DNA of 64,000 bases, from IMG/VR virus record IMGVR_UViG_3300037504_000149; one strand, written 5' to 3'. The position numbers and the translations under genes were made by a program. Of this stretch, positions 32,428-63,929 are shown one piece after another (the stretch's first letter is position 1; every line of letters begins with the position of its first letter). The notes beneath the pieces were generated by a model, which worked only from the letters and a program-made list of their open reading frames with translations, ran no database searches and was not told the DNA's origin. The stretch is from a virus (lineage: Duplodnaviria > Caudoviricetes).

Positions 32428-32687
32428 CAACACAAAAAAATTGTGTTACTTTTAGAGCGATGGAACTTGCTGATTCTCGGAGGGTTATGCACGATGCAAA
32501 AGCTAAACTTTTACAAGCGCAAGTGCTTACTGGGATTTCGTTATGCTATGAGATGTTAGAAGTCATTGAAAAGGTTTCTCCTATAGAAGTTAGAGAACAG
32601 TTAGCTAATCGTCTCGAAGGTTTACTAACGACCAGTTGTAATTGTATCGAGATGTGCGATGAGCTAACTGATGGGGAGTTGAGCTAA
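32424..32687 (+). CDS. hypothetical protein
   Basis: Short ORF; start uncertain. Confidence 0.45.
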   Translation: MTTQKNCVTFRAMELADSRRVMHDAKAKLLQAQVLTGISLCYEMLEVIEKVSPIEVREQLANRLEGLLTTSCNCIEMCDELTDGELS

Positions 32688-32691
32688 TGGT

Positions 32692-33075
32692 ATGCTGATG
32701 GACTCCAAATCCATTAATGGGAGTTCAAATCTTCCACTCCCCGCCAAGCCTTCTATACGTTGGGATGTAGTGTCTGGTGTCAAAGAGACGACAATACGTA
32801 TAGGCACTTATATCGATCCTACAGATCTAAGGAGTAGTATGCCTGATGAAACTACGTTAAAGACAGACGATATAGTAGTTCTTCTTCGTGACGTATCTAA
32901 AGCTACTTGTTGGAAAAGTTTTGGATGGCATCTTACATTAGGGTATTTAGAATTATCGATAGCATTTGATGATAATAAAGAGAATAGACTACAAGCATTA
33001 GATAAGTTAATATCAATACTTAAATTAACATCTAAAGATGGGTATCTTGTACATATAACATACGCAATGGAGTGA
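32692..33075 (+). CDS. hypothetical protein
   Basis: ORF within the operon. Confidence 0.55.
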   Translation: MLMDSKSINGSSNLPLPAKPSIRWDVVSGVKETTIRIGTYIDPTDLRSSMPDETTLKTDDIVVLLRDVSKATCWKSFGWHLTLGYLELSIAFDDNKENRLQALDKLISILKLTSKDGYLVHITYAME

Positions 33076-42994: not shown

Positions 42995-43316
42995 TGAGGT
43001 ACTACCTTACGAAATTACATTAAACACAGAGGAAGGTAATGACTACTTAGCTAGTTTCCTAGACGAGCCTCTACAACCAGGAACGGAAGTTAGTATCCTC
43101 TTTGAGTTTGATACAGGGCGGTGTTCCTTTGACTTCTTTAATGGTACAAGCTCACCAGAAGGTTGGGATGATGATTGGGAAGGAGCACTCGATTGGTTAT
43201 CTAAGAATGGTTATGAGGATGAGGTGGCAGAAATAAATCGCCTAGCAGAAGAGTGGAATACTTTTAGTTATCAAAAGGAGAACTATGAAGGTAACAGTGA
43301 CAACCGAGCACGGTGA
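42987..43316 (+). CDS. acidic hypothetical protein
   Basis: Strongly D/E-rich. Confidence 0.6.
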   Translation: MNNEVLPYEITLNTEEGNDYLASFLDEPLQPGTEVSILFEFDTGRCSFDFFNGTSSPEGWDDDWEGALDWLSKNGYEDEVAEINRLAEEWNTFSYQKENYEGNSDNRAR

Positions 43317-43530
43317 GATGAGTGGACAGGATGCCGTAGATCAATTGCGTCGTGATGTTGTGGAGGCTCGTGAGGATTGGCGAGAAGCTGCACAGAGAGC
43401 GATAGACAAGCCTACGGATGAGGACTTCAGGTGCTGGGATACTGACCGTGAGGCGCATAGACTTTATGAGAGGTATAAAACTTGCTTACTCCAGTTCTGT
43501 GACGTTGAGCGGGCAGTAGGAGAAGAGTGA
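43285..43530 (+). CDS. hypothetical protein
   Basis: AAGGAG RBS. Confidence 0.6.
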   Translation: MKVTVTTEHGEMSGQDAVDQLRRDVVEAREDWREAAQRAIDKPTDEDFRCWDTDREAHRLYERYKTCLLQFCDVERAVGEE

Positions 43531-43566
43531 CTGGGAACCCTAAAGAGGAGGTAGGTATGAGGAGGG

Positions 43567-43884
43567 ATGGTTATAATGACAGATGAACTCTTAGATATGA
43601 TAGATGTGGTAAATGCTTACCGTCCTTGGACTATGGAATATATAGTTGAGGAGGGGTATATCCCAGGGTCCGAACCTACTTGTGTGTTAACTGTAGAGAA
43701 TGGTGAAAGAATTTACAAGCCAGCAAAAGGAGAATGTTCTATAGATTATGGAGAGCTTGTGTATATGGAATGCTTCCAGTCTAAAAAAGAAGCAATAGAT
43801 AGGCGCAAAGAACTAGAAAATAAATACAAGTTACGCTGGGCACATATCTATCGCACAGAGGCAGAATACGAGAATGGGAGATAA
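43567..43884 (+). CDS. hypothetical protein
   Basis: GGAGG RBS; last gene before the non-coding region. Confidence 0.6.
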   Translation: MVIMTDELLDMIDVVNAYRPWTMEYIVEEGYIPGSEPTCVLTVENGERIYKPAKGECSIDYGELVYMECFQSKKEAIDRRKELENKYKLRWAHIYRTEAEYENGR

Positions 43885-44110
43885 GGAAGAAGTGAAGAGT
43901 AGGAGGGGGAGGCACGATAGTTATAAGAGATACAAGGGAGGGGAGGGAGTAGTTGTAGGAGAGACAGGAGGGACACAGGGGAGAGATGAGGTAGGGGAGG
44001 ATAGAGTTAGGAGGGAGTAGTTGTAGGAGGGGGAAAGCTATGATGATGGAGGGGAGGGAAGTTAGAGGGGACATAGAAGGAGTATAGCAGGAGTATAGAG
44101 GGGGGGGGAT
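43870..44110 (+). other. G-rich polypurine tract containing a 20-bp direct repeat
   Basis: Almost no C on +; GGAGGGAGTAGTTGTAGGAG at 43942 and 44010; ends in a G9 run. Confidence 0.85.
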
Positions 44111-44157
44111 TGTACTGCCTTCTGCGTCCCCCCGAATATCTACCCCCCTCTACCTCT

Positions 44158-44336
44158 ATTTTAACATATTTTTTATTAAATGTCAAGTGTCATCTTGCTA
44201 TATTATTAAAATCGAATATAAAATAAAATATACATTTTTTTTATTATAACATATTATTTATTAAATGTCAAGTAAAATCTTTTATTTTTTTATTTTTATA
44301 ATCTTTTATTATAACATATTATTTATTAAATGTCAA
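44158..44336 (-). promoter_or_regulatory. three tandem leftward sigma70 promoters
   Basis: Minus strand: TTGACA-17-TAAAAT (44158-44186) and TTGACA-17-TATAAT (44243-44271, 44308-44336), all with TGn and AT-rich upstream sequence. Confidence 0.85.
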
Positions 44337-44640
44337 GTAAAATCTTAATTTTTTATTTATTTTTATTATTCATACTTCCCTATTTATAATAATAATATCC
44401 TTATTTATAAACTCCGTAACTCCCCTATTATCAATAAGTTATAACTGGCCCCTATCGCCACTCAAGGCATACCATACCACCCCTAGAACCGATCGGCGCT
44501 CTATGGCCCGTTATATCGATCCTGAGCGAAAATGCGTAAATACGCATATGGAGCCAATTGATATACTGTCTCAGTGTGCGCAACGTCACACCTTCCAATA
44601 AATATCGTGTATCAATAAGCCTACTTTGTGATAAAAGCCC

Positions 44641-44669
44641 TTGACAACACTAATCTTTTATGTTAGAAT
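44641..44669 (+). promoter_or_regulatory. promoter, mirror copy of the cassette reverse promoter
   Basis: TTGACA-17-TAGAAT followed by CACGTTATGAGGGG, as at 45280. Confidence 0.75.
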
Positions 44670-45201
44670 CACGTTATGAGGGGCAGTGTAGGGGTTTATA
44701 CATATACTACACTCCCCACTATTCATATACTCAATACTACAATTACAATAATGGGGAGGTGTATTCATATACTAACTAATCCTTCCCCTATATACAACAT
44801 TGAATAATAGTAATCTTAATTAGCATCGTCGCATATGTATCTTTATTCATATGCTCCACCAGACATTACCTGCTACCAGTCTATTTATAATATGAATATC
44901 AAAACTTATAATTAAGTATGTTAACACTATACTTAATTATACCATATTCGCCTATTCTAAAATGGATTTTACAGAATAATCTAATATGAATATAAGAAGA
45001 ACAGGGGGAGGGACCAGATAATTACAATATGAATATAAACAATTCCCCACTTAGGGGTCTCTATACAGGAAAAATCCCCACTGCTATATGATTATTCCTA
45101 TGTAGAGAGTCGCTCTTTCCCCACTTATTCATACTACCAGCATTCATAACATGAATAAATGCAGGTATAGCAAGGGTCTAGGGGGTGGGGAATAAATAAA
45201 A

Positions 45202-45281
45202 GTGATATAAACCTTGTACCAATAGGGTTTTATAGTGATATAAACCCTTGCCGCACTAAGGTTTATAGTGATATAAACCTT
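45202..45281. repeat. three 33-bp-period repeats containing the palindrome AAGGTTTATA-GTGA-TATAAACCTT
   Basis: GTGATATAAACC at 45202, 45235, 45268. Confidence 0.85.
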
Positions 45282-45405
45282 GACACAAAAGAAGTTTTAT
45301 GTTAGAATCACGTTATGAGGGGGAGTGTAGGGGGAGTATATATAACTATATACGTATAATCGAATATCCAGAATAAAAAAAAACCCCCGGCGATAACACC
45401 GGGGG
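45280..45405 (-). repeat. mirror-orientation cassette module (promoter, conserved spacer, terminator of the minus-strand gene)
   Basis: TTGACA-17-TAGAAT, GAGGGGGAG, ATAATCGAATAT, hairpin CCCCCGG..CCGGGGG with a T-tract on the minus strand. Confidence 0.8.
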
Positions 45406-45415
45406 AAGGGGGCGG

Positions 45416-45598
45416 CTATGCGTCGTCAAGAGCACCGCGAGCAGACCAGACGGCCTGGGCGGCCCGAACTATGGCACTGCGGGCGGCGGCGGCAGGGTCG
45501 CTGGTGAGGTGTTTGAGGGCGTCAAGGGTGTTGTATGCATCGCAAATGTCGTTGATAGCGGAAGTGAGGGCGGCGGCGGCGCGGGCAGTGTTTCTCAT
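45416..45598 (-). CDS. cassette cargo, 60-aa Ala-rich helical protein
   Basis: Has its own promoter (45649-45678 on -), GCCCC-ACC-GGGGC leader hairpin, GGGAG RBS and terminator. Confidence 0.75.
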   Translation of the reverse strand: MRNTARAAAALTSAINDICDAYNTLDALKHLTSDPAAAARSAIVRAAQAVWSARGALDDA

Positions 45599-45648
45599 GA
45601 TCTTCTCCCTTCTGCCCCGGTGGGGCGGTTGTTGATTGTTGTGAGACA

Positions 45649-45731
45649 AGTATACCATATAAACTAGAGGATTGTCAAGGGTAAAATTAAATAAAATAGT
45701 ACTTGACTTTAAGGGAGTTTTATGTTATCAT
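45649..45731. promoter_or_regulatory. back-to-back promoter pair, mirror orientation
   Basis: Minus TTGACA-18-TATACT; plus TTGACT-17-TATCAT; 24 bp between the -35 boxes. Confidence 0.8.
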
Positions 45732-46070
45732 CATGTTATGAGGGGGAGTGTAGGGGGAAGGGAGCGGGAGACGTTGAATAGTTACAATATGAATGGGGGA
45801 GTAGAGGGGAGCGGGAGATGTTGAGAGGATGTTGAATAGTTAGAATATGAATAGGGAGGAAGAAGGGGGGGTGATTATTCATATTAAGATCATTCTGAGA
45901 TTTTGCAGGGTATTTATATTATTGATATACCGTACAATCCCCCAATATACGCGCACAAAATTTTGCAACCCCCAATTTTAATTATTCATAATAATTATAT
46001 TCTACCCCCCCCCTGCTCCTTCCCCTGCTCCCGTATTCCTCGCGCTATTATAATTCTACATACCTACCAT

Positions 46071-46209
46071 AAAAGAGTTTAACATAAAACTTCCCTGAAG
46101 TCAATACCTATTTTATTCCATTTTATCCTTGACAAGTTTTCAATCCATATGGTATACTGCCTTCAGAAGATAAAAACGCCCCGGAGGGGGCATAACCTGG
46201 AAGGGAACG
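46071..46209 (+). repeat. cassette module R0 (no terminator)
   Basis: AGTCAA 46099-46104, TTGACA 46129-46134, TATACT 46153, leader hairpin, RBS. Confidence 0.9.
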
Positions 46210-46410
46210 ATGGATAAGGAAAACTTTGATGTATTTTATGCGGCGGCGCAAGCTGTAGCAACACTTAAATCAGCTCGTGCCATTGCCTGTGTCGTTGACG
46301 CTGCTGTCCGTACAAAAGAAACACGGACAGCGCTGAATAAAATCTGTGATGCGCTGAAAACGATGGAATCGGTGCGAAACAGTAACCTAGAAACAATATA
46401 TTCTCGCTAA
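46210..46410 (+). CDS. cassette cargo, 66-aa helical protein
   Basis: Lies between R0 and R1. Confidence 0.8.
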   Translation: MDKENFDVFYAAAQAVATLKSARAIACVVDAAVRTKETRTALNKICDALKTMESVRNSNLETIYSR

Positions 46411-46422
46411 ACATACTACACC

Positions 46423-46655
46423 GCCCCGCTGGAATCCAGCGGGGCTTTTCTTTATCCTGGATATTCGATTATTCTTATATCCTATTTTATATATTCCCCT
46501 TAGTCTTCCCCTTCAAACATAATGCTAACATAAAACTTACCTGAAGTCAATACCTATTTTATTCAATTTTATCCTTGACAATCTAGGAACTAGTATGATA
46601 TAATAGCTTTACAAGATTAGAAACGCCCGCAAGGCGGGCATAACAGGGAGGATAT
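46423..46655 (+). repeat. cassette module R1
   Basis: Terminator GCCCCGCTGG-AAT-CCAGCGGGGC-TTTT, spacer, AGTCAA 46545, TTGACA 46575, leader, RBS. Confidence 0.95.
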
Positions 46656-46838
46656 ATGGAACGGACAACCTATATTGTTATCGGCGGCCAGCAGGTCGGC
46701 ATCACTGGCAACCCCAACGATGACCCGCTGTCCGCCCCGGCGGCCAAGGCGGCGCTGAAGGACTATCGCGCCCGCACCGGCCGGACCGCTGTCCCTATCC
46801 GGCTGGCCAATGGGACGGTATTCTCACGGGGATTCTAG
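46656..46838 (+). CDS. cassette cargo, 60-aa protein
   Basis: GGGAGG RBS; GC-rich. Confidence 0.8.
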   Translation: MERTTYIVIGGQQVGITGNPNDDPLSAPAAKAALKDYRARTGRTAVPIRLANGTVFSRGF

Positions 46839-46846
46839 GTTATTAC

Positions 46847-47076
46847 GCCCCGCTGGAATCCAGCGGGGCTTTTCTATACCTTGTATATTCGATTATTCTT
46901 ATATCCTAATATATTCCCCTTAGTCTCCCCCTTCAAACATAATGCTAACATAAAACTTCCCTGAAGTCAAGACCTATTTTATTCCATTTTATACTTGACA
47001 ATCTAGGAATCCATATGGTATACTACTTTCAGAAGATGAAAACGCCCCGGAGGGGCAAAACTAGGGAGGGGAAAGA
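46847..47076 (+). repeat. cassette module R2
   Basis: Near-identical to R1; AGTCAA 46965, TTGACA 46995. Confidence 0.95.
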
Positions 47077-47328
47077 ATGGAGTATTTATTGCGTCTGACC
47101 CGCGCCCGATATAATGATATACCGATAGATAACATCGGGCAAGCTACGCGAATAAAGGTCAAGAGTATACAAGCCGCTAAGATAGCGGCAACAAGATGGG
47201 CGGAGCAAGTGGCAACACCAAACAAGCCCTATTGTGTCGTTATCTACACAATCGAGGGTACACCTATAATAAGAAAACACAGCTTTACTAAGAAATGGGC
47301 GAAAGCGGGAGAATTCTACTGTACCTAG
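47077..47328 (+). CDS. cassette cargo, 83-aa basic protein
   Basis: GGGAGG RBS. Confidence 0.8.
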   Translation: MEYLLRLTRARYNDIPIDNIGQATRIKVKSIQAAKIAATRWAEQVATPNKPYCVVIYTIEGTPIIRKHSFTKKWAKAGEFYCT

Positions 47329-47334
47329 CATTTA

Positions 47335-47563
47335 CCCCCGCTGGATTCCAGCGGGGCTTTTCTTTATCCTGGATATTCGATTATTCTTATATCCTAATAT
47401 ATTCCCCTTACTCTCCCCTTCAAACATAATGCTAACATAAAACTTCCCTGAAGTCAAGACCTATTTTATTCCATTTTATACTTGACACTCTAGGAACTAG
47501 TATGGTATACTACCTTCAGAAGATGAAAAGCCCGCATAGCGGGCATAACAGGAAGGGAAACGG
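47335..47563 (+). repeat. cassette module R3
   Basis: AGTCAA 47452, TTGACA 47482. Confidence 0.95.
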
Positions 47564-47896
47564 ATGATTTACGAAGTTATTACTCGCGATGAACTCTATC
47601 ACCGTCTGAAGGGGTATAACGACGTATTCTCGTATGAGGGGGCTCGGATAATATACGATTATATTACCGAACTCGGCGATACGGAGCTAGACGTTCCCGA
47701 CATTCACGGCGGGTTTACGGAGTATTCCGATGCTGAGGAAGCGGCAGAGGACATTCTCCCCCCTGATGAGGTCGAGGAAATGCGGAAAGAATTCGCGGAA
47801 TTCCCCGGCCTTGATGATGAATGCTGGAAGGCGCTGGAGCGGGCCGGTGAAACAGTGCTGGGCTCGGCGTCCGGGCCTGTCATTATCGCGGAATAG
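47564..47896 (+). CDS. cassette cargo, 110-aa strongly acidic protein
   Basis: D/E-rich; single gene between R3 and R4. Confidence 0.8.
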   Translation: MIYEVITRDELYHRLKGYNDVFSYEGARIIYDYITELGDTELDVPDIHGGFTEYSDAEEAAEDILPPDEVEEMRKEFAEFPGLDDECWKALERAGETVLGSASGPVIIAE

Positions 47897-47903
47897 TTTT
47901 ATC

Positions 47904-48130
47904 GCCCCGCTGGTATTCCAGCGGGGCTTTTCTATACCTTGTATATTCGATTATTCTTATATATATTCCCCTTACACTTCCCCTTCAAACATAATGCTAA
48001 CATAAAAGTTCCCTGAAGTCAATACCTATTTTATTTAATTTTACACTTGACAATCATTTAATCCGTATGATATAATACCTTTACAAGATTGAAACGCCCC
48101 TACAGGGGCATAACAGGAAAGGGAAGGAAT
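47904..48130 (+). repeat. cassette module R4
   Basis: AGTCAA 48017, TTGACA 48047. Confidence 0.95.
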
Positions 48131-48568
48131 ATGATTTACACCAATCTTGATGAAGCACGCGCCGCGAAGGCGGCGAGCGTAGCAAAGGCGCGAGAGCTGG
48201 AGTCCCGCGCTATCGAAGGTGAGGGGCCTACTTCCACCGAAGCCGAAGAAGTCAGGCATGAACGGTGGATCAAGGAAAACACCCTGGTTGTTACCAGGCA
48301 CGCAGGCCTGGTCGACTACATCAAAGAAGAGTTCATTTATCCCGCGTACCTGGCATCAGACGTGGTATTCTCTCACGTTGAGCAAAAGGACGTGGAGGGG
48401 AAGCACGTGGTTGGCATTTTGCCGCTCCACCTGGCCGCATTGGCAGATAAGGTGACGGTCATCCCCCTGAACCTGACCCCGGCGGATCGAGGTCAGGAAC
48501 TTTCCGCCGAACGGGTGCGGGAAGTGGCCGGTGACCCGGTAACCTACCGGGTCGAGCAGGTGAATTAG
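48131..48568 (+). CDS. Csx16-like protein (putative cyclic-oligoadenylate ring nuclease)
   Basis: VTRHAG...VVGILPLHLAA...L.LTPADRGQELSAE matches the recalled Csx16 pattern SRHPG...IGTLP.HLAA...RG.ELS. Start moved to 48131. Confidence 0.75.
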   Translation: MIYTNLDEARAAKAASVAKARELESRAIEGEGPTSTEAEEVRHERWIKENTLVVTRHAGLVDYIKEEFIYPAYLASDVVFSHVEQKDVEGKHVVGILPLHLAALADKVTVIPLNLTPADRGQELSAERVREVAGDPVTYRVEQVN

Positions 48569-48576
48569 CTCTCACT

Positions 48577-48707
48577 GCCCCGCTGGATTCCAGCGGGGCT
48601 TTTCTATACCTTGTATATTCGATTATTCTTATATCCTATTATATATATATATTACCCTAGTCTCCCCCTTCAAACATAATGCTAACATAAAACTTCCCTG
48701 AAGTCAA
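48577..48707 (+). repeat. cassette module R5 (terminator and reverse promoter only)
   Basis: Similarity ends just after AGTCAA 48702-48707. Confidence 0.9.
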
Positions 48708-48903
48708 GAACTATTTTAATGTATCTAAAACAAGGCAGCACAAGGGTATATTTTAGTCGCCCGTAGAAGTGATATAACGGGCCGTAGATGGCCGTAAAGG
48801 GTGGCAGAGTGGTATAGTATACTTATCTATTGAACGGCCTTAAAATCGCCCTACGGGCATTATATGGAATATCAGGAAAGTTTAATATAGATAAAGTTTT
48901 CTC

Positions 48904-49136
48904 TTGACAGGGAGCAAAGGTTATGATATACTTCCCCCGTAAGATTGAGAAATAGATACCTGAAACGCCCCCCAGAGGGGGCATAAAGGAAAGGGGAATA
49001 AATGAAGGGTTGACAGCGATGGGGAAGTATGATATACTTCCCCCGTAAGATTGAAGATGTAGTAAACGCCCCTACGGGGCACAAAGGAAAGGGGCTAAAA
49101 TTAGGGGTTGACAAGGGTGGGGAAGTATGATATAAT
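48904..49136 (+). promoter_or_regulatory. three tandem promoters, the first two with leader hairpin and RBS but no gene
   Basis: TTGACA-17-TATACT at 48904 and 49010; TTGACA-17-TATAAT at 49108; ~100-bp period. Confidence 0.85.
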
Positions 49137-49145
49137 CCCCTTGAT

Positions 49146-49389
49146 GAGCGTTACCTATAACACAGTATCATTTATTCACTAGAGTTAACAAGGGAGGGAG
49201 GCGCAGGATGAAACACTATCAGCGTAACATCCTGCTGGAACCCGGTTAAATCATCGGGGCGGAAAGTAAGTCGGCCCCGCCCCGGCTTTCCCGGGCCTTA
49301 ACATGGGATACACCGTAGACCTATTGTGATCAACGGTAAATCCGTTGTGACGCTCCCCCGGTCCCTAAACTATGGGGACCGGGGATTTT
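49146..49389 (+). ncRNA. candidate structured ncRNA A with its own terminator
   Basis: End pairing GAGCGTTAC/GTGACGCTC, four internal hairpins, terminator stem 49356-49384. Only a 13-aa ORF inside. Confidence 0.6.
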
Positions 49390-49430
49390 AGTATAGTTAG
49401 TTTATATTATAAGACTGCCGGACTGCCCAC

Positions 49431-49569
49431 AAAAGAGTTTAACATAAAAGTTACCTGAAGTCAATACCTATTTTATTTAATTTTACGCTTGACATTCTAG
49501 GAACTAGTATGATATAATAGCTTTACAAGATTAAAACGCCCCGGAACGGGGCATAACAGGGAGGGAACG
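49431..49569 (+). repeat. cassette module R6 (no terminator, same 5' end as R0)
   Basis: AAAAGAGTTTAACATAAAA..., AGTCAA 49459, TTGACA 49489. Confidence 0.9.
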
Positions 49570-49782
49570 GTGTTTCACTTAAAATTCTACGACGGGACGA
49601 CCGGGAGTGCCGGTTGTTACGGGAGTTTTGATACGCTCGCCGACGCTATGGCTGAGTGTGATACCGTCCCCGGTTGCTCCGGGGAGTCAGGGTATGAGTC
49701 ATCCTCGTTGTATATCGAGGATGACACAGGAGAAGTTGTCGCATCCCTAGGCGCATATTGCGCCGGTTGGGTTGTGGGCTAG
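49570..49782 (+). CDS. cassette cargo, 70-aa acidic protein
   Basis: GGGAGG RBS, GTG start. Confidence 0.75.
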   Translation: MFHLKFYDGTTGSAGCYGSFDTLADAMAECDTVPGCSGESGYESSSLYIEDDTGEVVASLGAYCAGWVVG

Positions 49783-49789
49783 ATTTACG

Positions 49790-49962
49790 GCCCCGCTGAT
49801 ATTCTCAGCGGGGCTTTTCTTTTACCTTGTATATTCGATTATTCTTATATATATCCCCTTACTCTCCCCCTTCAAACATAATGATAACATAAAACTTTCC
49901 TGAAGTCAACCCCTAAATTTCCCTATTAAATCCTTGACATCTATCTGCTGTTTTGATACAAT
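49790..49962 (+). repeat. cassette module R7 (variant; drives an RNA, no leader or RBS)
   Basis: Terminator with compensatory TGA/TCA change; AGTCAA 49904; TTGACA 49934-17-TACAAT. Confidence 0.9.
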
Positions 49963-49969
49963 ACTCGTC

Positions 49970-50102
49970 GAGGTGGCAGCCGCAGTAGGCGCAGGGAAGT
50001 TGAGACCCCTAGACGTAGGACTCCGGTCCCTGTATCCCCGCCGATCACGGGGTGCATGCGGGTGTCGGGATTGTCCGGGCAATCCCCAATCCCGCCCACC
50101 TT
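49970..50102 (+). ncRNA. candidate structured ncRNA B occupying a cassette slot
   Basis: GAGGTGG/CCACCTT closing stem with four internal stems; lies between promoter and terminator; no RBS or ATG-started ORF of meaningful length. Confidence 0.7.
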
Positions 50103-50113
50103 ACATGAAACGG

Positions 50114-50348
50114 CCCCCGCTGGATTCCAGCGGGGCTTTTCTTTTACCTTGTATATTCGATTATTCTTATATCCTAATATATTCCCCTTAGTCTCCCCCT
50201 TCAAACATAATGCTAACATAAAAGTTACCTGAAGTCAATACCTATTTTATTCAATTTTATACTTGACAAGCTATAAACTAGTATGATATACTATCCCCAC
50301 AAGATTAGAAACGCCCCCGGAGGGGGCATAACAAAGGAAGGGGAAGAA
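50114..50348 (+). repeat. cassette module R8
   Basis: AGTCAA 50233, TTGACA 50263. Confidence 0.95.
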
Positions 50349-50861
50349 ATGGGCTGGGATGGTAGGTATATGGATAACACTGTGAAAGCCCGTCAACGAG
50401 TGATGATGGAGACTGTCGGACTGATAGACTTGTCGGTCCGGGGCAATGAAGGGTACGCTGCAGTGAAACATCCCGATATGGAGGCCGTGTTTTGTATGAT
50501 CTTCATTTTCCGGTATTCTGAAGGGGAATTGTGTACAAAGACCTGTACGGAGCTTGACGGCCCGTTTTGTTGGAATTGCCCGCAACGTATTATGAAACAG
50601 CTCACTGCGCCGCTGAACGAGCGGGCGGCGGATTGGCGCGATGCTTGTCGGCTCGCTGCGAAGTTGCGCAAAGCGCGTTATGTTTATCTGGAGCGGTCGC
50701 CGCATGGCACTGACATACGCTTAGTGGAAAAGGTGGCGAATGCTCGGAGTGTTTACCGTGAGATGTATACCGGTGAACTATGGCGGCTGCGCGTTAACAC
50801 TATGATGCACTACGGCGCTCGTCCAGTGGATAAGGACGAAGCCGAGGCGATGTTACGTTAG
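50349..50861 (+). CDS. DUF6927-like protein
   Basis: MGW...YAAV...E.DGP...NCP.RIM..LT.....A.DWR..C. Start moved to 50349. Confidence 0.65.
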   Translation: MGWDGRYMDNTVKARQRVMMETVGLIDLSVRGNEGYAAVKHPDMEAVFCMIFIFRYSEGELCTKTCTELDGPFCWNCPQRIMKQLTAPLNERAADWRDACRLAAKLRKARYVYLERSPHGTDIRLVEKVANARSVYREMYTGELWRLRVNTMMHYGARPVDKDEAEAMLR

Positions 50862-50868
50862 ATTTACC

Positions 50869-51088
50869 GCCCCGCTGGAATCCAGCGGGGCTTTTCTTTA
50901 TCCTTTATATTCAATTATTCTTATATATATATTCCCCTTAGTCTTCCCCTTCAAACATAATGCTAACATAAAACTTCCCTGAAGTCAATACCTATTTTAT
51001 CCAATTTTACACTTGACAAGCTATAAACTAGTATGATATAATAGCTTTACAAGATTGATAGCAGTTAACATTAAAAGGGGAGGGCTCC
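50869..51088 (+). repeat. cassette module R9
   Basis: AGTCAA 50983, TTGACA 51013. Confidence 0.9.
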
Positions 51089-51958
51089 ATGCGTGTTGAT
51101 AAGAAAAAGGAAAAGGTACTCACACACTTAGAGGATATTTTATCGGCGCTGAAGAATGACCCGGCGGCGCTGAAGCGCTTGTCGTGGATTAAACCGTGGA
51201 GTAACCCACCCCGTAACTTGGCCGGGCGTCAATATAACGGTGGTAATGTACATATTCTGAACTTTGCCTCCGTCGTTAGTAGTTATAAGCATAATAGGTG
51301 GGGAACGTTCAATCAATATAAGAAGTATGGGGCCAGCATTATTAAGGGCTCCAGTGCGACGCCTATCTATTACTATAATGTAAAGAAATACACTAAAGAA
51401 GATGAGAATGGAGAGGAAAAGGAATATACTTATTATGTGTTTAAGTATTTTAATCTTTTCAATATCGCACAAACGACATTGGAGATTGAGCGGCTCCCCG
51501 GCGTCGAGTATAAAGAAGTAGAATATACCACACCGGAACGAATCCGGAGGGGATATTGTGACAATGGCGGCCCGGAGTATCAGGAATCCGGTGACCGTGC
51601 CTTTTATCGGCCCGGAGGGGATTTAGTCTGCTTGCCGCCCCGCGAAACATTCCATTCATCAGCGGAGTATGCCAGTACGCTATATCATGAACTGGTGCAT
51701 AGCACCGGGCATGAAAAGCGGCTGGACCGGGGATTTAGCTTGTCTCGGGGCGGGGAAGGGTACGCCCTAGAGGAACTGGTCGCAGAGACTGGAGCGCTAA
51801 TCCTTTGTGACCGGAGCGGTATTAACCCGGACGTGAATAACTTCAAGGCGTATATTGCTAGCTGGCTTCAGGCGGTAAAATCTGACCAGCGTTACAAAAC
51901 TTTCTCCGCATTGTCACAAGCGGAGAAGGCCGTTGACTACATTCTAGGGGAAAGGTAG
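51089..51958 (+). CDS. ardC: ArdC-family antirestriction protein (ssDNA-binding domain plus zincin-like domain)
   Basis: WIKPW, Y.G.N, WGTFNQ, FNIAQT, AFY.P..D.V.LP, HELVHSTGHEKRLDR, YALEELVAE, YIASWL. Confidence 0.92.
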   Translation: MRVDKKKEKVLTHLEDILSALKNDPAALKRLSWIKPWSNPPRNLAGRQYNGGNVHILNFASVVSSYKHNRWGTFNQYKKYGASIIKGSSATPIYYYNVKKYTKEDENGEEKEYTYYVFKYFNLFNIAQTTLEIERLPGVEYKEVEYTTPERIRRGYCDNGGPEYQESGDRAFYRPGGDLVCLPPRETFHSSAEYASTLYHELVHSTGHEKRLDRGFSLSRGGEGYALEELVAETGALILCDRSGINPDVNNFKAYIASWLQAVKSDQRYKTFSALSQAEKAVDYILGER

Positions 51959-51996
51959 ACTTTCCCCTTGACATTATAGAGCATTTTATGGTACTA
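51947..51996 (+). promoter_or_regulatory. palindrome fused to a promoter (type-2 module, copy 1)
   Basis: GGGGAAAG-GTAGA-CTTTCCCC immediately followed by TTGACA 51968-17-TACTAT. Confidence 0.75.
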
Positions 51997-52039
51997 TTGC
52001 CTTAGAAGATTGAAAAACAAAACAAGGGAAGGGGAAAAC

Positions 52040-52612
52040 ATGGCCACGGGAAACTTTCACTATCATACGAATTTGTGTTATGCTTTGCCTGATGACGGTC
52101 CAAACGTATTAGAAGATGCGTTAGATCGTATAAAGGTCGAAGCGGCCCGTATGGGGTTGACGCTGGAAAAGTACCTAGCACCGGAAAAATTCGATACAAA
52201 ATCATACGGTCGGCACTATTATACTCACCTTGCTGAGTATAGTGTAGAACAGCCGTATTATGGCGGGTTCATTACTGTTTCTGCTGGTATTGGCGTCCGT
52301 GCTGGATACTATACTGGTGGATGCTATGACTGCTGCATTATTGCAGAGTTTTACGGCAGTAAGATAGCTGATAGTCACTACGATGACTCCTATACGGATG
52401 TAGATGAGATTGAGGAACTTTTGCTAGAATGTAGCGATGTACCAAAGGGTTTTATTCAGCACGCTGCAATTAAGGTGCGGGATAAAGCCGATGAACTGAT
52501 TGATGAGGTAGAAGATACGACAAACCGCTTACTCGCTGCCGCTGCTGAAGTGAAACTGGCTTGTCTAGGCTCGGCCAGTAACGGCGAGACGTTTTATCGG
52601 AAGGTGGATTAG
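52040..52612 (+). CDS. hypothetical protein
   Basis: Start moved to MATGNF after AGGGAAGGGG. Confidence 0.75.
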   Translation: MATGNFHYHTNLCYALPDDGPNVLEDALDRIKVEAARMGLTLEKYLAPEKFDTKSYGRHYYTHLAEYSVEQPYYGGFITVSAGIGVRAGYYTGGCYDCCIIAEFYGSKIADSHYDDSYTDVDEIEELLLECSDVPKGFIQHAAIKVRDKADELIDEVEDTTNRLLAAAAEVKLACLGSASNGETFYRKVD

Positions 52613-52620
52613 GTTAGATA

Positions 52621-52723
52621 GGGGAAAGCATATGCTTTCCCCTTGACTTTCACGTTGTCTTATGGTACAGTTGTCTTAGAAGATTAAACAACGCCCCGTC
52701 GGGGCATAACTGGGAGGGAAAAG
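52621..52723 (+). promoter_or_regulatory. type-2 module, copy 2
   Basis: 22-bp perfect palindrome GGGGAAAGCATATGCTTTCCCC, TTGACT, leader GCCCC-GTC-GGGGC-ATAAC, RBS. Confidence 0.8.
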
Positions 52724-53353
52724 ATGAAACTGTACAAGCGTAACGGCAAGATGTACCTTGCCGTCGAAGGACAAGAGATTGAGATAGCCGACATTCGAGA
52801 CGCTGTTAAGGCGCTCGGCGGTACGGTCGAAACGTCAACCTATCGCAAAGTCGAGCTGTTTCATGATTACGATTGTCCTAATCCGCTGGAGGGTGATTCG
52901 GAAGTTTTCATCTATCATAAGCGGAATCGAGAGTTTGAAGTCGGTCAAGATATTGAAGCGGCTGGCGGCTTCGAGGGCGTCCGAGAAGCGCATCCCGATG
53001 CTGTTATCGCGCCCCTGTACGCATACGTGCATTCTGGCGTGTGCTTCAGTACCAAGTACACCTATCCTTTCACTTGTCAATGGGATGCTGGATTGACGGG
53101 TTGCATCGTCGGTCCGAGTAAAGAAGCGATTCTTGGCGCTATCGAGGAATTGAATCATTATGTAGCAGGGAACTGCTACGGATATGAGGTGCAAGATGAA
53201 TGGGGTGAGGTGCTGGATTGTTGTGGCGGTTTCTGGGGATATATCGACGACGAACTTTTGAAGGAATATGCGATGGCGCATTGCCCCGACCCGGAGAACA
53301 TGGACGTTGTTTTTAGCGACCCCTTCGGCCGAGAAGAGAAGGTTGAGTGGTAG
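52724..53353 (+). CDS. acidic hypothetical protein
   Basis: GGGAGG RBS. Confidence 0.75.
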   Translation: MKLYKRNGKMYLAVEGQEIEIADIRDAVKALGGTVETSTYRKVELFHDYDCPNPLEGDSEVFIYHKRNREFEVGQDIEAAGGFEGVREAHPDAVIAPLYAYVHSGVCFSTKYTYPFTCQWDAGLTGCIVGPSKEAILGAIEELNHYVAGNCYGYEVQDEWGEVLDCCGGFWGYIDDELLKEYAMAHCPDPENMDVVFSDPFGREEKVEW

Positions 53354-53361
53354 GTAGGATA

Positions 53362-53412
53362 GGGGAAAGCATATGCTTTCCCCTTGACTTTACCGTTATC
53401 TTGTGGTATACT
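53362..53412 (+). promoter_or_regulatory. type-2 module, copy 3
   Basis: Same 22-bp palindrome, then TTGACT-17-TATACT. Confidence 0.8.
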
Positions 53413-63544: not shown

Positions 63545-63929
63545 GGGGCTGATAAGGGTTCGACGTGCGAGTAAAAGTGAGGTAGCATCCCGTGGTTGGT
63601 CTCTAGGCCACGTAAAAAAGAGACCAAACAACAACAGCCGAAAATGCTGTTCCCTTGGCTGCTTAAAAAGCCGCTCCTCTATGGAGCTAGGCTCGTAGCC
63701 CGCCCCCGGAAAGGTTTCTCTGCACCTGACTGGATAAGGCGTCAAAAAGCAGGGGTCCGACTTGGAGTTACCTAATCGCTCCTAAAAGGACTACAGAGTA
63801 ATTAGGTAGGGTGCGCGAGACTGTGCCGTATCAGCCGGACCGCACCGACACGACATGATACGGCTATGGATGTAGATGCCGAAGCGGCACTTGACACGGA
63901 CGCGGGTTCGATTCCCGCCAGCTCCACCA
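63545..63929 (+). ncRNA. ssrA: tmRNA, tag AENAVPLAA
   Basis: Acceptor stem GGGGCTG/CAGCTCC with G3:U, ACCA end, T-arm GCGGGTTCGATTCCCGC, pseudoknot pk1, tag frame 63637-63666 ending LAA-stop. Confidence 0.97.

Follow-up and report, generated by a model that had tools for sequence, protein, structure and literature searches.

Promoter-early stem-loop (PeSL) cassettes have been described in T4-type phages (Arbiol et al. 2010, PMC2839356; Comeau et al. 2014, PMC4122927). These terminator-promoter cassettes appear to be the closest known kind to the repeated spacers between small early genes in the 64,000-nt phage window analysed here, each of which carries a strong forward promoter together with a weaker candidate promoter (P_rev) aimed back at the preceding gene. 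Both are repeated composites of a terminator and a strong early promoter with an A/T-rich upstream region, and both stand in front of small ORFan genes, in variable parts of large phage genomes whose close relatives differ in gene content. The inter-cassette modules here differ in being ~230-bp, ~90% identical repeats of one unit with a conserved 5′-leader hairpin, and in having a second, opposite-strand promoter with a G-rich start, the PeSL descriptions containing no reverse promoter. Shuffling is hinted at here, and PeSL carriers are T4-type phages, whereas the present phage is not assigned there.

Phage cis-antisense RNAs from convergent promoters include lambda oop, directed against cII, and P22 sar, directed against ant. 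The modules resemble these systems, in which a moderate promoter 3′ of an early gene points back and a non-coding antisense RNA lowers expression. However, oop and sar are single loci, whereas here about ten cassettes with unrelated cargo would share the arrangement, and each leader holds a predicted reverse-only terminator. The back-to-back divergent pair lambda pR/pRM likewise combines opposite-strand promoters with upstream DNA in common; in contrast to such divergent pairs, the P_rev modules have no known regulator site. Symmetric bidirectional promoters have starts 7–25 bp apart and overlapping −10 elements (Warman et al., bioRxiv 10.1101/2020.01.31.928960), whereas the two promoters here share neither −35 nor −10, and ~96 bp separate their predicted starts.

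The genome belongs to an uncultured giant phage, a large dsDNA phage with T4-like replication and recombination genes, whose contig (at least 230 kb) encodes topoisomerase II, ribonucleotide reductase and SbcC and carries no transfer genes. Copies of P_rev cluster around a mirror-symmetric non-coding hub (43.9–46.1 kb) that shows no GC-skew turn. The array is followed by an ArdC gene, placed under the forward promoter of module R10.

Pattern search, consensus scan and extraction of all copies agreed that the minus strand of all ten modules carries TTGACT and, after a 17-bp spacer whose last bases are TATG-T, a −10 hexamer, as the initial annotation had described, with the full TATG motif (−16) in every copy. 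Seven modules have TAGCAT as this hexamer, 49909 has TATCAT, and 46104 and 49464 have TAAACT. With each −35 starting at the higher coordinate, these minus-strand sites are R1 (46076–46104), which faces the non-coding hub and no gene; R2 (46522–46550; TTGACT-17-TAGCAT), facing cassette C1; R3 (46942–46970), facing C2; R4 (47429–47457), facing C3; R5 (47994–48022), facing C4; R6 (48679–48707), facing C5, a Csx16-like gene; R7 (49436–49464), facing an RNA cargo and its own terminator (49356–49384); R8 (49881–49909); R9 (50210–50238), facing the non-coding RNA cargo C8; and R10 (50960–50988), facing C9. When one 125-bp module was dinucleotide-shuffled, a minus-strand site this good with TG arose in 1.2% of the shuffles. 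Because the ten copies are near-identical repeats, "ten of ten" amounts to about one event and the number proves little.

The forward promoter of R2 (46575–46604, plus strand) matches the consensus at 12/12 positions plus TG, and its plus-strand equivalents start at 46129, 46995, 47482, 48047, 49489, 49934, 50263 and 51013. Between the two −35 hexamers lies an A/T-rich gap with phased T-tracts (46551–46574 in R2), which, in line with the initial annotation, is 24 bp long in nine of the ten modules and in the inverted copy (45678 minus/45703 plus). One module had been said to keep this length with a different gap sequence, and this also held, at 49909/49934 (R8 here, R7 in the earlier numbering), where ~14/24 bases are alike and no indel occurs. 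The gap has the size of one UP element and may serve both promoters. The exception, R6 (48707), has no forward promoter behind it, and forward promoters at 48904, 49010, 49108, 51968, 52643 and 53384 lack a P_rev; the two units are therefore separable.

Better support for P_rev than its ten copies comes from stand-alone paralogs, the pattern across sequence classes and a relative. Two plus-strand paralogs, S1 (44641–44669) and S2 (45280–45308), read TTGACA-17-TAGAAT (11/12 plus TG) and share the G-rich start; the chance of one site of this quality in the 1-kb hub is 0.25%. S1 would fire into non-coding DNA. S2 lies behind the terminator of a leftward gene (45416–45598) and is directed towards that gene, with no forward promoter at its back, which indicates that the unit is associated with terminator and gene and not with the forward promoter. 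The P_rev of inverted module M (45703–45731, plus strand; TTGACT-17-TATCAT) sits 24 bp from a leftward forward promoter (45649–45678).

All 13 copies share TTGAC, the 17-bp spacer, TTTTATGTTA and a T at position 6 of the −10, and in the upstream 9 nt of the spacer the other classes match the module form at 6/9, 5/9 and 3/9 positions. This combination of fixed hexamers and spacing with a diverged upstream spacer half looks promoter-like. The P_rev block is also the only stretch common to every module class. In the relative (L012), 32/33 P_rev bases are identical, against 71% of ArdC third-codon positions; the sole change brings the −10 nearer to consensus, and the gap is again 24 bp. Module copies may nevertheless be kept alike by recombination, so that their conservation, including that in the relative, need not mean selection on a promoter.

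The predicted R2 P_rev RNA begins with a G-rich segment (46490–46515, minus strand) containing two Shine-Dalgarno (SD)-like boxes and no start codon. This start, initially proposed to be conserved throughout, recurs in eight modules and in S1, S2 and M; the two TAAACT modules (46104, 49464) have other downstream sequence without G boxes. Eight of the ten modules follow it with a 59–73 nt run to the upstream terminator stem. Pairing of the G boxes with a generic anti-SD gave −8.8 to −12.8 kcal/mol against a background of −4.3 ± 3.0, and the SDs of the cassettes themselves gave similar values (−9.9 to −12.2 kcal/mol). SD-like sequences that lie at the 5′ end and precede no start codon are a known means of stabilising long untranslated RNAs in Bacilli (review PMC3997798). 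The STAB-SD or polypurine 5′ elements that stabilise Bacillus RNAs (Agaisse and Lereclus 1996; Hue et al. 1995; reviewed in PMC3997798) likewise consist of a strong, purine-rich SD-like box close to the 5′ end of an untranslated RNA lacking a start codon. The G-rich 5′ end is probably a ribosome-binding stabiliser of this SD type, a match made here on sequence and pairing energy.

Terminator stems such as the forward intrinsic terminator of C1 (46423–46445, plus strand) have tails with only 1–3 U in 8 nt when read in reverse, bearing out the earlier remark that they lack a U-tract in that direction, so the terminator would not end the P_rev RNA. The leader hairpins are terminator-like in reverse only, their tails containing 4–6 U in 8 in that direction versus 0–1 forward. 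On the minus strand, the C1 hairpin (46176–46193; 6 U in 8) is the predicted end of the R2 antisense RNA, and further reverse-only hairpins lie in the leaders of C2 (46624–46636), C3 (47043–47057), C4 (47530–47544) and C7 (49536–49554), with weaker tracts (4 of 8) in C5 (48095–48112) and C9 (50311–50327). Together, the stems and hairpins predict antisense RNAs of 320–650 nt and not the ~100-nt transcript first envisaged. Its supposed firing into a gene-less spacer stands insofar as the spacer comes first, and falls in that nothing would stop the RNA before the upstream ORF.

We tentatively favour the reading that P_rev is a genuine, weaker sigma-70/sigma-A-type promoter making antisense RNA into the preceding cassette, which we regard as quite possible; promoter activity, RNA starts and ends and a regulatory effect are what we infer from the observed anatomy, paralogs and conservation. 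Of the four alternatives raised initially, antisense control of the upstream cassette fits this anatomy best, because the terminator, and not the forward promoter, is what the unit accompanies, and because the leader hairpins look like terminators only when read in reverse. As part of the module's terminator side, P_rev would be a tail element of the preceding cassette, pointing back into it. Its RNA would open with the two G boxes as a ribosome-binding 5′ stabiliser, pass through an A/U-rich spacer of ~60–70 nt and then the terminator stem, run antisense over the preceding ORF and end at the leader hairpin of that cassette. Such an end would make each cassette a convergent unit, in which a very strong sense promoter meets a moderate antisense promoter with both ends closed, and head-on transcription plus sense/antisense pairing would probably damp, time-limit or insulate each early, partly anti-defence, gene. 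Several points count against this antisense reading: no gene lies in front of the P_rev copies R1, M and S1, the reverse U-tracts of the leader hairpins are interrupted and moderate, the cassette at 52724 has a leader hairpin but is not followed by a P_rev, the RNA cargo C8 is followed by one but lacks a leader hairpin, and the host polymerase may have other sequence preferences.

The same G boxes could instead open a short (~85–100 nt), G-rich, multicopy non-coding RNA with its 3′ end at or within the terminator stem and a role in trans, for instance as an SD mimic that titrates ribosomes or C-rich RNAs or frees cassette SDs from pairing with their own 5′ leader. Conserved 5′ boxes and a 3′ stem in eight near-identical copies and three paralogs, an SD-like pairing energy equal to that of true SDs, and leaders whose 5′ ends pair with their own SDs as a possible target all suit this idea; we consider it unlikely, given a reversed stem without a U-tract, the stem being the sole conserved structure, an A/U-rich middle that takes indels of up to 14 nt and no matching Rfam family. 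T4 R-loop origins, ColE1 RNA II and the mitochondrial LSP–CSBII pair are precedents for a further role, in which P_rev transcription across a G cluster and the readily melting A/T-rich DNA beyond it would yield a stable RNA-DNA hybrid that primes replication or starts recombination. The recurrence of a promoter with a G-rich non-template start in three forms unrelated in sequence (module, S-type, 44186 minus), the clustering around the hub and the T4-like gene set are consistent with it, but each unit has just two short G runs, 13 origins in 7 kb would be odd and the hub lacks a skew turn, making this very improbable. The Frpo/ssi single-strand promoters found in plasmid leading regions (Masai and Arai 1997; Samuel et al. 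2024, PMC11541004) also place consensus-like −35/−10 boxes upstream of anti-defence-type genes including ArdC, and both arms here contain TTGAC...TATG.TA with ArdC after the array. A fold-back of the two arms on ssDNA into a duplex promoter was rejected because ssDNA folds of the two-promoter stretch from six modules, a check proposed in the initial annotation, gave −1.9 to −5.8 kcal/mol (z −1.04 to +0.64), no better than shuffles, and left the arms unpaired save for a 6-bp −35/−35 stem in some. The arms, earlier taken for imperfect reverse complements, merely share the promoter consensus (~6/13 agreement outside it), and changes in the forward spacer, which is free to vary, are not matched by compensating ones in the reverse arm. 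With ordinary duplex promoters on a non-conjugative phage replicon rather than a conjugative leading region, this explanation is scarcely credible; the promoter interpretation gains real support from the paralogs, the cross-class pattern and the relative, and its Frpo-like version fails.

Other explanations place the role of P_rev in the DNA. Polymerase at or leaving P_rev might insulate or tune the forward promoter by blocking read-through head-on, by rivalry for the shared UP-like gap or by sending negative supercoiling into the forward promoter, and P_rev might also be an RNA polymerase sink. A gap held at the length of about one full UP element in nine modules (including the diverged one), the inverted module and the relative, with the ~96-bp separation of predicted starts, speaks for such a device. 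Yet S1, S2 and 48707 have no forward partner, consensus forward promoters exist without P_rev, the conserved G boxes would have no role, and the forward terminators look strong, leaving little read-through to block; we therefore find it doubtful. Somewhat less doubtful, though still on the unlikely side, is that P_rev is a hitch-hiking relic or recombination core, descended from the stand-alone S-type promoters, copied with the modules and kept uniform by PeSL-type recombination, so that any transcription from it would serve no role. Such recombination is documented (PMC2839356), and here gene content after ArdC varies among relatives and low-depth alternative joints are present between leaders. 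The module copies are weakened relative to S1/S2 (TTGACT/TAGCAT versus TTGACA/TAGAAT), and their P_rev block is the one segment common to all module classes, with homology breakpoints on its flanks. Against a relic, the three classes change bases after the "TA" of the −10 and all retain T at position 6, the −35 and 17-bp spacing persist in S1, S2 and M despite a diverged spacer, the one difference in the relative makes for a better −10, and a pure recombination core needs no promoter shape with a TATG motif. The P_rev spacer is nearly invariant among the modules and that of the forward promoter is not; this is more invariance than a plain promoter needs and hints at another or additional DNA-level role.

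Examination of the inter-cassette modules revealed a putative minus-strand promoter, P_rev, directed at the preceding cassette. As the initial annotation had claimed, its box is present in all ten modules (R1-R10), as TTGACT and a 17-bp spacer ending in TATG-T, followed by a -10 hexamer that reads TAGCAT in seven modules, TATCAT in one and TAAACT in two. A P_rev-type promoter with its transcribed start recurs three more times on the plus strand left of the array, in two stand-alone paralogs (S1, 44641; S2, 45280) and in an inverted module (M). Across the 13 copies, the -35 hexamer is TTGACT in 11 and TTGACA in two, the spacer is invariably 17 bp (within the 16-18 bp of sigma-70/sigma-A-type promoters), and the -10 forms (TAGCAT, TATCAT, TAAACT or TAGAAT) all retain the A at position 2 and the T at position 6 of that class. 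Every copy also carries TATG one base ahead of the -10, constituting an extended -10 element; in Gram-positive bacteria this -16 motif is TRTG.

The -35 hexamers of P_rev and of the strong sense promoter (the forward promoter) lie 24 bp apart in nine modules and in the inverted copy at 45678(-)/45703(+), again as annotated, and the expected module with a diverged gap sequence and unchanged length was found at 49909/49934. For the P_rev at 48707, the forward partner is missing. In eight modules a common G-rich start is followed by 59-73 nt to the upstream terminator stem, which, read in reverse, precedes only 1-3 U in the next 8 nt, consistent with the annotated lack of a reverse U-tract.

The modules are copies of one unit, about 90% identical from terminator through ribosome-binding site, so their ten occurrences amount to little more than one event. 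When a single 125-bp module was dinucleotide-shuffled, 1.2% of the shuffles contained a minus-strand site of P_rev quality with TG. S1 and S2 (TTGACA-17-TAGAAT, 11/12 plus TG) equal the forward promoters in quality, and the chance of one such site within the 1-kb hub, the non-coding stretch left of the array, is 0.25%. The modules, the inverted module, S2 and S1 agree without exception in TTGAC, in the spacing of 17 bp and in ten bases surrounding the -16 motif, and the upstream nine spacer bases match the module form at 6, 5 and 3 of 9 positions in the inverted module, S2 and S1, respectively. In the two TAAACT modules all sequence past the -10 'TA' has been replaced, yet the T at position 6 is kept. 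Such fixed hexamers and spacing, coupled with a drifting upstream spacer, are what selection on a promoter would be expected to produce.

A related phage locus recovered through its ArdC gene (L012) retains 32 of the 33 bases of the P_rev box and the 24-bp gap; its ArdC shares 86.7% nucleotide identity, with 71% at third-codon positions. The single change in the box, TAGCAT to TATCAT, brings the -10 nearer consensus. Concerted evolution of the repeats is a caveat on this conservation. Collectively, P_rev is probably a functional promoter of some kind; its anatomy is read directly, and everything past that anatomy we infer.

To which unit P_rev belongs is indicated by a leftward gene (45416-45598) that forms a full mirror image of a cassette. 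Its strong minus-strand promoter (45649-45678) is followed by a leader hairpin, the ORF lies between this hairpin and a minus-strand terminator (45384-45405), and the near-consensus S2 (45280, plus strand) faces the gene and is not backed by a forward promoter. Six consensus forward promoters, at 48904, 49010, 49108, 51968, 52643 and 53384, have no P_rev. The existence of P_rev copies lacking a forward partner (S2 and 48707) and of forward promoters lacking P_rev thus identifies two separable units; judged from this layout, P_rev goes with the terminator side and is the tail of the preceding cassette. It lies downstream of, and convergent with, a gene in ten units (cassettes C1-C9 and the leftward gene), the position typical of a cis-antisense RNA regulator, and this placement is absent for R1 (46104), M and S1.

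The reverse transcript had been annotated as an RNA of about 100 nt confined to the spacer; the anatomy instead predicts a much longer product. Nothing terminator-like stands at the upstream stem in the path of the predicted P_rev RNA. The 5'-leader hairpins of the cassettes are followed on the minus strand by 4-6 U within 8 nt, versus 0-1 T in the forward direction, and five of the seven in the array were independently called as minus-strand terminators by a consensus scan. Because the reverse U-tract is missing at the terminator and reverse terminators lie in the leaders, overlap with the cassette mRNA is predicted, and the P_rev product would be a 320-650-nt antisense RNA spanning the preceding ORF. 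We put this antisense model forward tentatively, as a credible role that falls somewhat short of probable. Antisense ORFs opposite C1 and C3 were inconsistent between cassettes and were discarded.

The predicted G-rich start contains two SD-like boxes within its first 25 nt, whose predicted pairing energy with a generic anti-SD is -8.8 to -12.8 kcal/mol; on this scale, true cassette SDs pair at -9.9 to -12.2 kcal/mol and the background lies at -4.3 +/- 3.0 kcal/mol. No start codon is conserved 5-10 nt 3' of the G boxes, and tiny ORFs behind them were rejected for this reason; the ATG of S1, S2 and M is not kept in the modules, where it precedes the predicted start. The boxes thus have the form of a STAB-SD, in which a strong SD-like sequence sits close to the 5' end without a start codon and bound ribosomes shield the RNA from 5' exonuclease. 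In Bacilli, long untranslated RNAs are stabilised by a strong SD close to the 5' end, even where no start codon is present (PMC3997798), and a comparable stabilising role would make sense for an antisense RNA. From the TATG -16 motif together with the very strong SDs we infer, as a suggestion, a Gram-positive-like host.

The window comes from a phage contig whose length is at least 229,864 bp. Bases 1-43,000 have a G+C content of 28-42%, mostly 33-38%, and carry plus-strand genes only, including SbcC/Rad50-like, class II ribonucleotide reductase and topoisomerase II subunit genes. Near 43000 the G+C content steps from mostly 33-38% in the replication genes to about 40-53% in the cassette region, the A/T-rich hub at 44-45 kb excepted, and a Logan contig is continuous across 43500-44268. 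Genes past about 43 kb are small and individually promoted, and the array ends with an ArdC-type anti-restriction gene (51089-51958). Given the phage replication genes, the small promoted genes, the ArdC end and the distant phage matches, the array region is an early or accessory part of a large uncultured phage rather than a plasmid leading region. The sole public run with the sequence is a DNA run from a tidal-flat metagenome, available as contigs, with no RNA run listed for 45300-52000; these contigs break at modules, and among them are two joints of low depth and an insertion of 3 bases.

By megablast, no GenBank phage matched the array, and exact-pattern searches with the P_rev core or with P_rev plus G-box returned 0 matches in viral_contigs, metagenome_contigs and genome_contigs. 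Protein-anchored searches on two flanking genes recovered no relatives in IMG/VR, and the IMG/VR loci found via ArdC are at most 36% identical. Modules are absent from the contexts of distant ArdC homologues (L015-L017) and of Csx16-like homologues (L013, L014), which consist of ordinary tightly packed genes. A 170-aa cassette protein has no homologue besides itself. The Csx16-like cargo itself (48131-48568; 145 aa; Cas_VVA1548 domain, E 8e-17) has no other cas genes nearby, and its homologues, at 42-60% identity, lie mostly on short metagenomic contigs.

The closest known match to the array is the PeSL cassettes of T4-type phages (PMC2839356, PMC4122927). As in PeSLs, terminators with stems of 9-11 bp (8-9 G-C) and a U-tract precede promoters matching 11-12/12 positions that have A/T-rich DNA upstream, and the unit is repeated, here in ten modules, ahead of small genes, most cargos lacking a Pfam or PHROG match. 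ArdC neighbours differ among relatives, marking a variable region. Motif recombination in PeSLs yields indels and mini-circles; here, two low-depth alternative joints in contigs of the source run hint at exchange between modules. The phage encodes topoisomerase II, SbcC-like and ribonucleotide reductase genes, with best phage protein matches below 40% identity. After ArdC (51959-53412; L012:1006-1100) the module type changes to a short hairpin that directly abuts the -35, with neither P_rev nor a long spacer, and the next gene past ArdC is not the same in this phage as in its relatives. PeSL descriptions include no reverse promoter, reverse-only leader terminator or G-rich start (PMC2839356, PMC4122927), whereas the array, as predicted here, carries all three, and these are its new features.

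Several other readings of P_rev were weighed. A Frpo-like promoter formed by fold-back of single-stranded DNA, one of the initially proposed alternatives, did not survive the folding check: predicted energies of -1.9 to -5.8 kcal/mol are no better than those of shuffles (z -1.04 to +0.64), the arms stay unpaired, their likeness off consensus positions is only about 6/13, and the forward spacer varies without compensating change. Nor is the setting that of a leading region, as the phage contig carries, beside its replication genes, a phage-borne tRNA-Trp (32673-32746) and tmRNA (63545-63929; tag ENAVPLAA). Symmetric bidirectional promoters have divergent starts 7-25 bp apart and overlapping -10 elements (bioRxiv 10.1101/2020.01.31.928960); here the core elements are separate, with -35 hexamers 24 bp apart and predicted starts about 96 bp apart, and this class was likewise rejected.

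The P_rev spacer is more uniform among modules than a promoter requires, the forward promoter showing fixed hexamers and a freely varying spacer. The P_rev block may be a relic or a recombination core maintained by PeSL-like exchange, which we consider unlikely; if P_rev is inactive, it would be a conserved repeat core marking cassette recombination sites. Somewhat less likely still is a short trans-acting G-rich RNA: in the first 100 nt of nine predicted reverse RNAs, RNAalifold detected the terminator stem as the sole conserved structure, and their A/U-rich middle tolerates indels, so that a structured small RNA is disfavoured; the only Rfam matches at E<=1 were terminator look-alikes. A similarly low likelihood attaches to a device acting by polymerase roadblock, a shared UP element or supercoiling; its chief support is the constant length of the 24-bp A/T-rich gap. 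More improbable again is an R-loop formed at every module by P_rev, the G cluster and the A/T-rich stretch, priming DNA synthesis or recombination, a reading suggested by the occurrence of a promoter followed by a G cluster in three unrelated forms around the mirror-symmetric non-coding hub. Were it true, the modules would be active engines of cassette exchange, possibly extra replication starts, and PeSL-type shuffling would gain a mechanism in place of passive homology.

Should P_rev be active, as we favor, each early gene, several cargos being anti-defence-like, would be wrapped in a standard two-way unit. This unit would combine a strong sense promoter with a leader hairpin that halts antisense RNA alone, a terminator that halts sense RNA alone, and an antisense promoter whose RNA has a stabilised 5' end. 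Such an arrangement would offer a portable route to a self-limiting expression burst for any newly captured gene, add a regulatory layer to T4-type phage promoter-terminator cassettes and provide compact insulated parts usable in synthetic biology.

The non-coding hub (43880-46104) contains a 230-bp purine/G-rich tract and two tandem repeats, one of 33 bp (45201-45282) and one of 65 bp, the latter with three leftward consensus promoters (44186, 44271, 44336) that have no ORF ahead. Two P_rev-type promoters (45703+, 46104-) converge within it on G-rich and then C-rich DNA, and contigs over 44654-46116 have about twice the flank depth. The hub is a candidate origin or genome end. A block of about 50 bp 5' of S1 (44469-44517) recurs inverted 5' of the P_rev at 48707 (48771-48820), with a local score of 34 versus 27 for the best of 300 shuffles.

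In the predicted cassette mRNAs, the first 5-6 nt pair with their own SD region around the leader hairpin (CCUUC/GGAAGG; 46159-46209, 47512-47563, 48077-48130 and 50293-50348), and in C9 both sides are altered, UCCCC pairing with GGGGA. Such pairing points to a sequestered 5' end or a masked SD. Two cassette slots are free of protein genes and gave no Rfam match. In the slot at 48904-49389, three tandem consensus promoters (48904, 49010, 49108) are followed by a 13-codon ORF and a structured stretch that has a terminator of its own; the product of the slot at 49934-50141 would be a roughly 170-nt RNA lacking both leader hairpin and ribosome-binding site. At the low-depth joints (47040-47041, 49143, 49535), the C3 leader is linked to the promoters at 49108 and 49489 on contigs with depths of 2.9 and 6.2, versus about 22 for the main form, which hints at variants with another cassette order.
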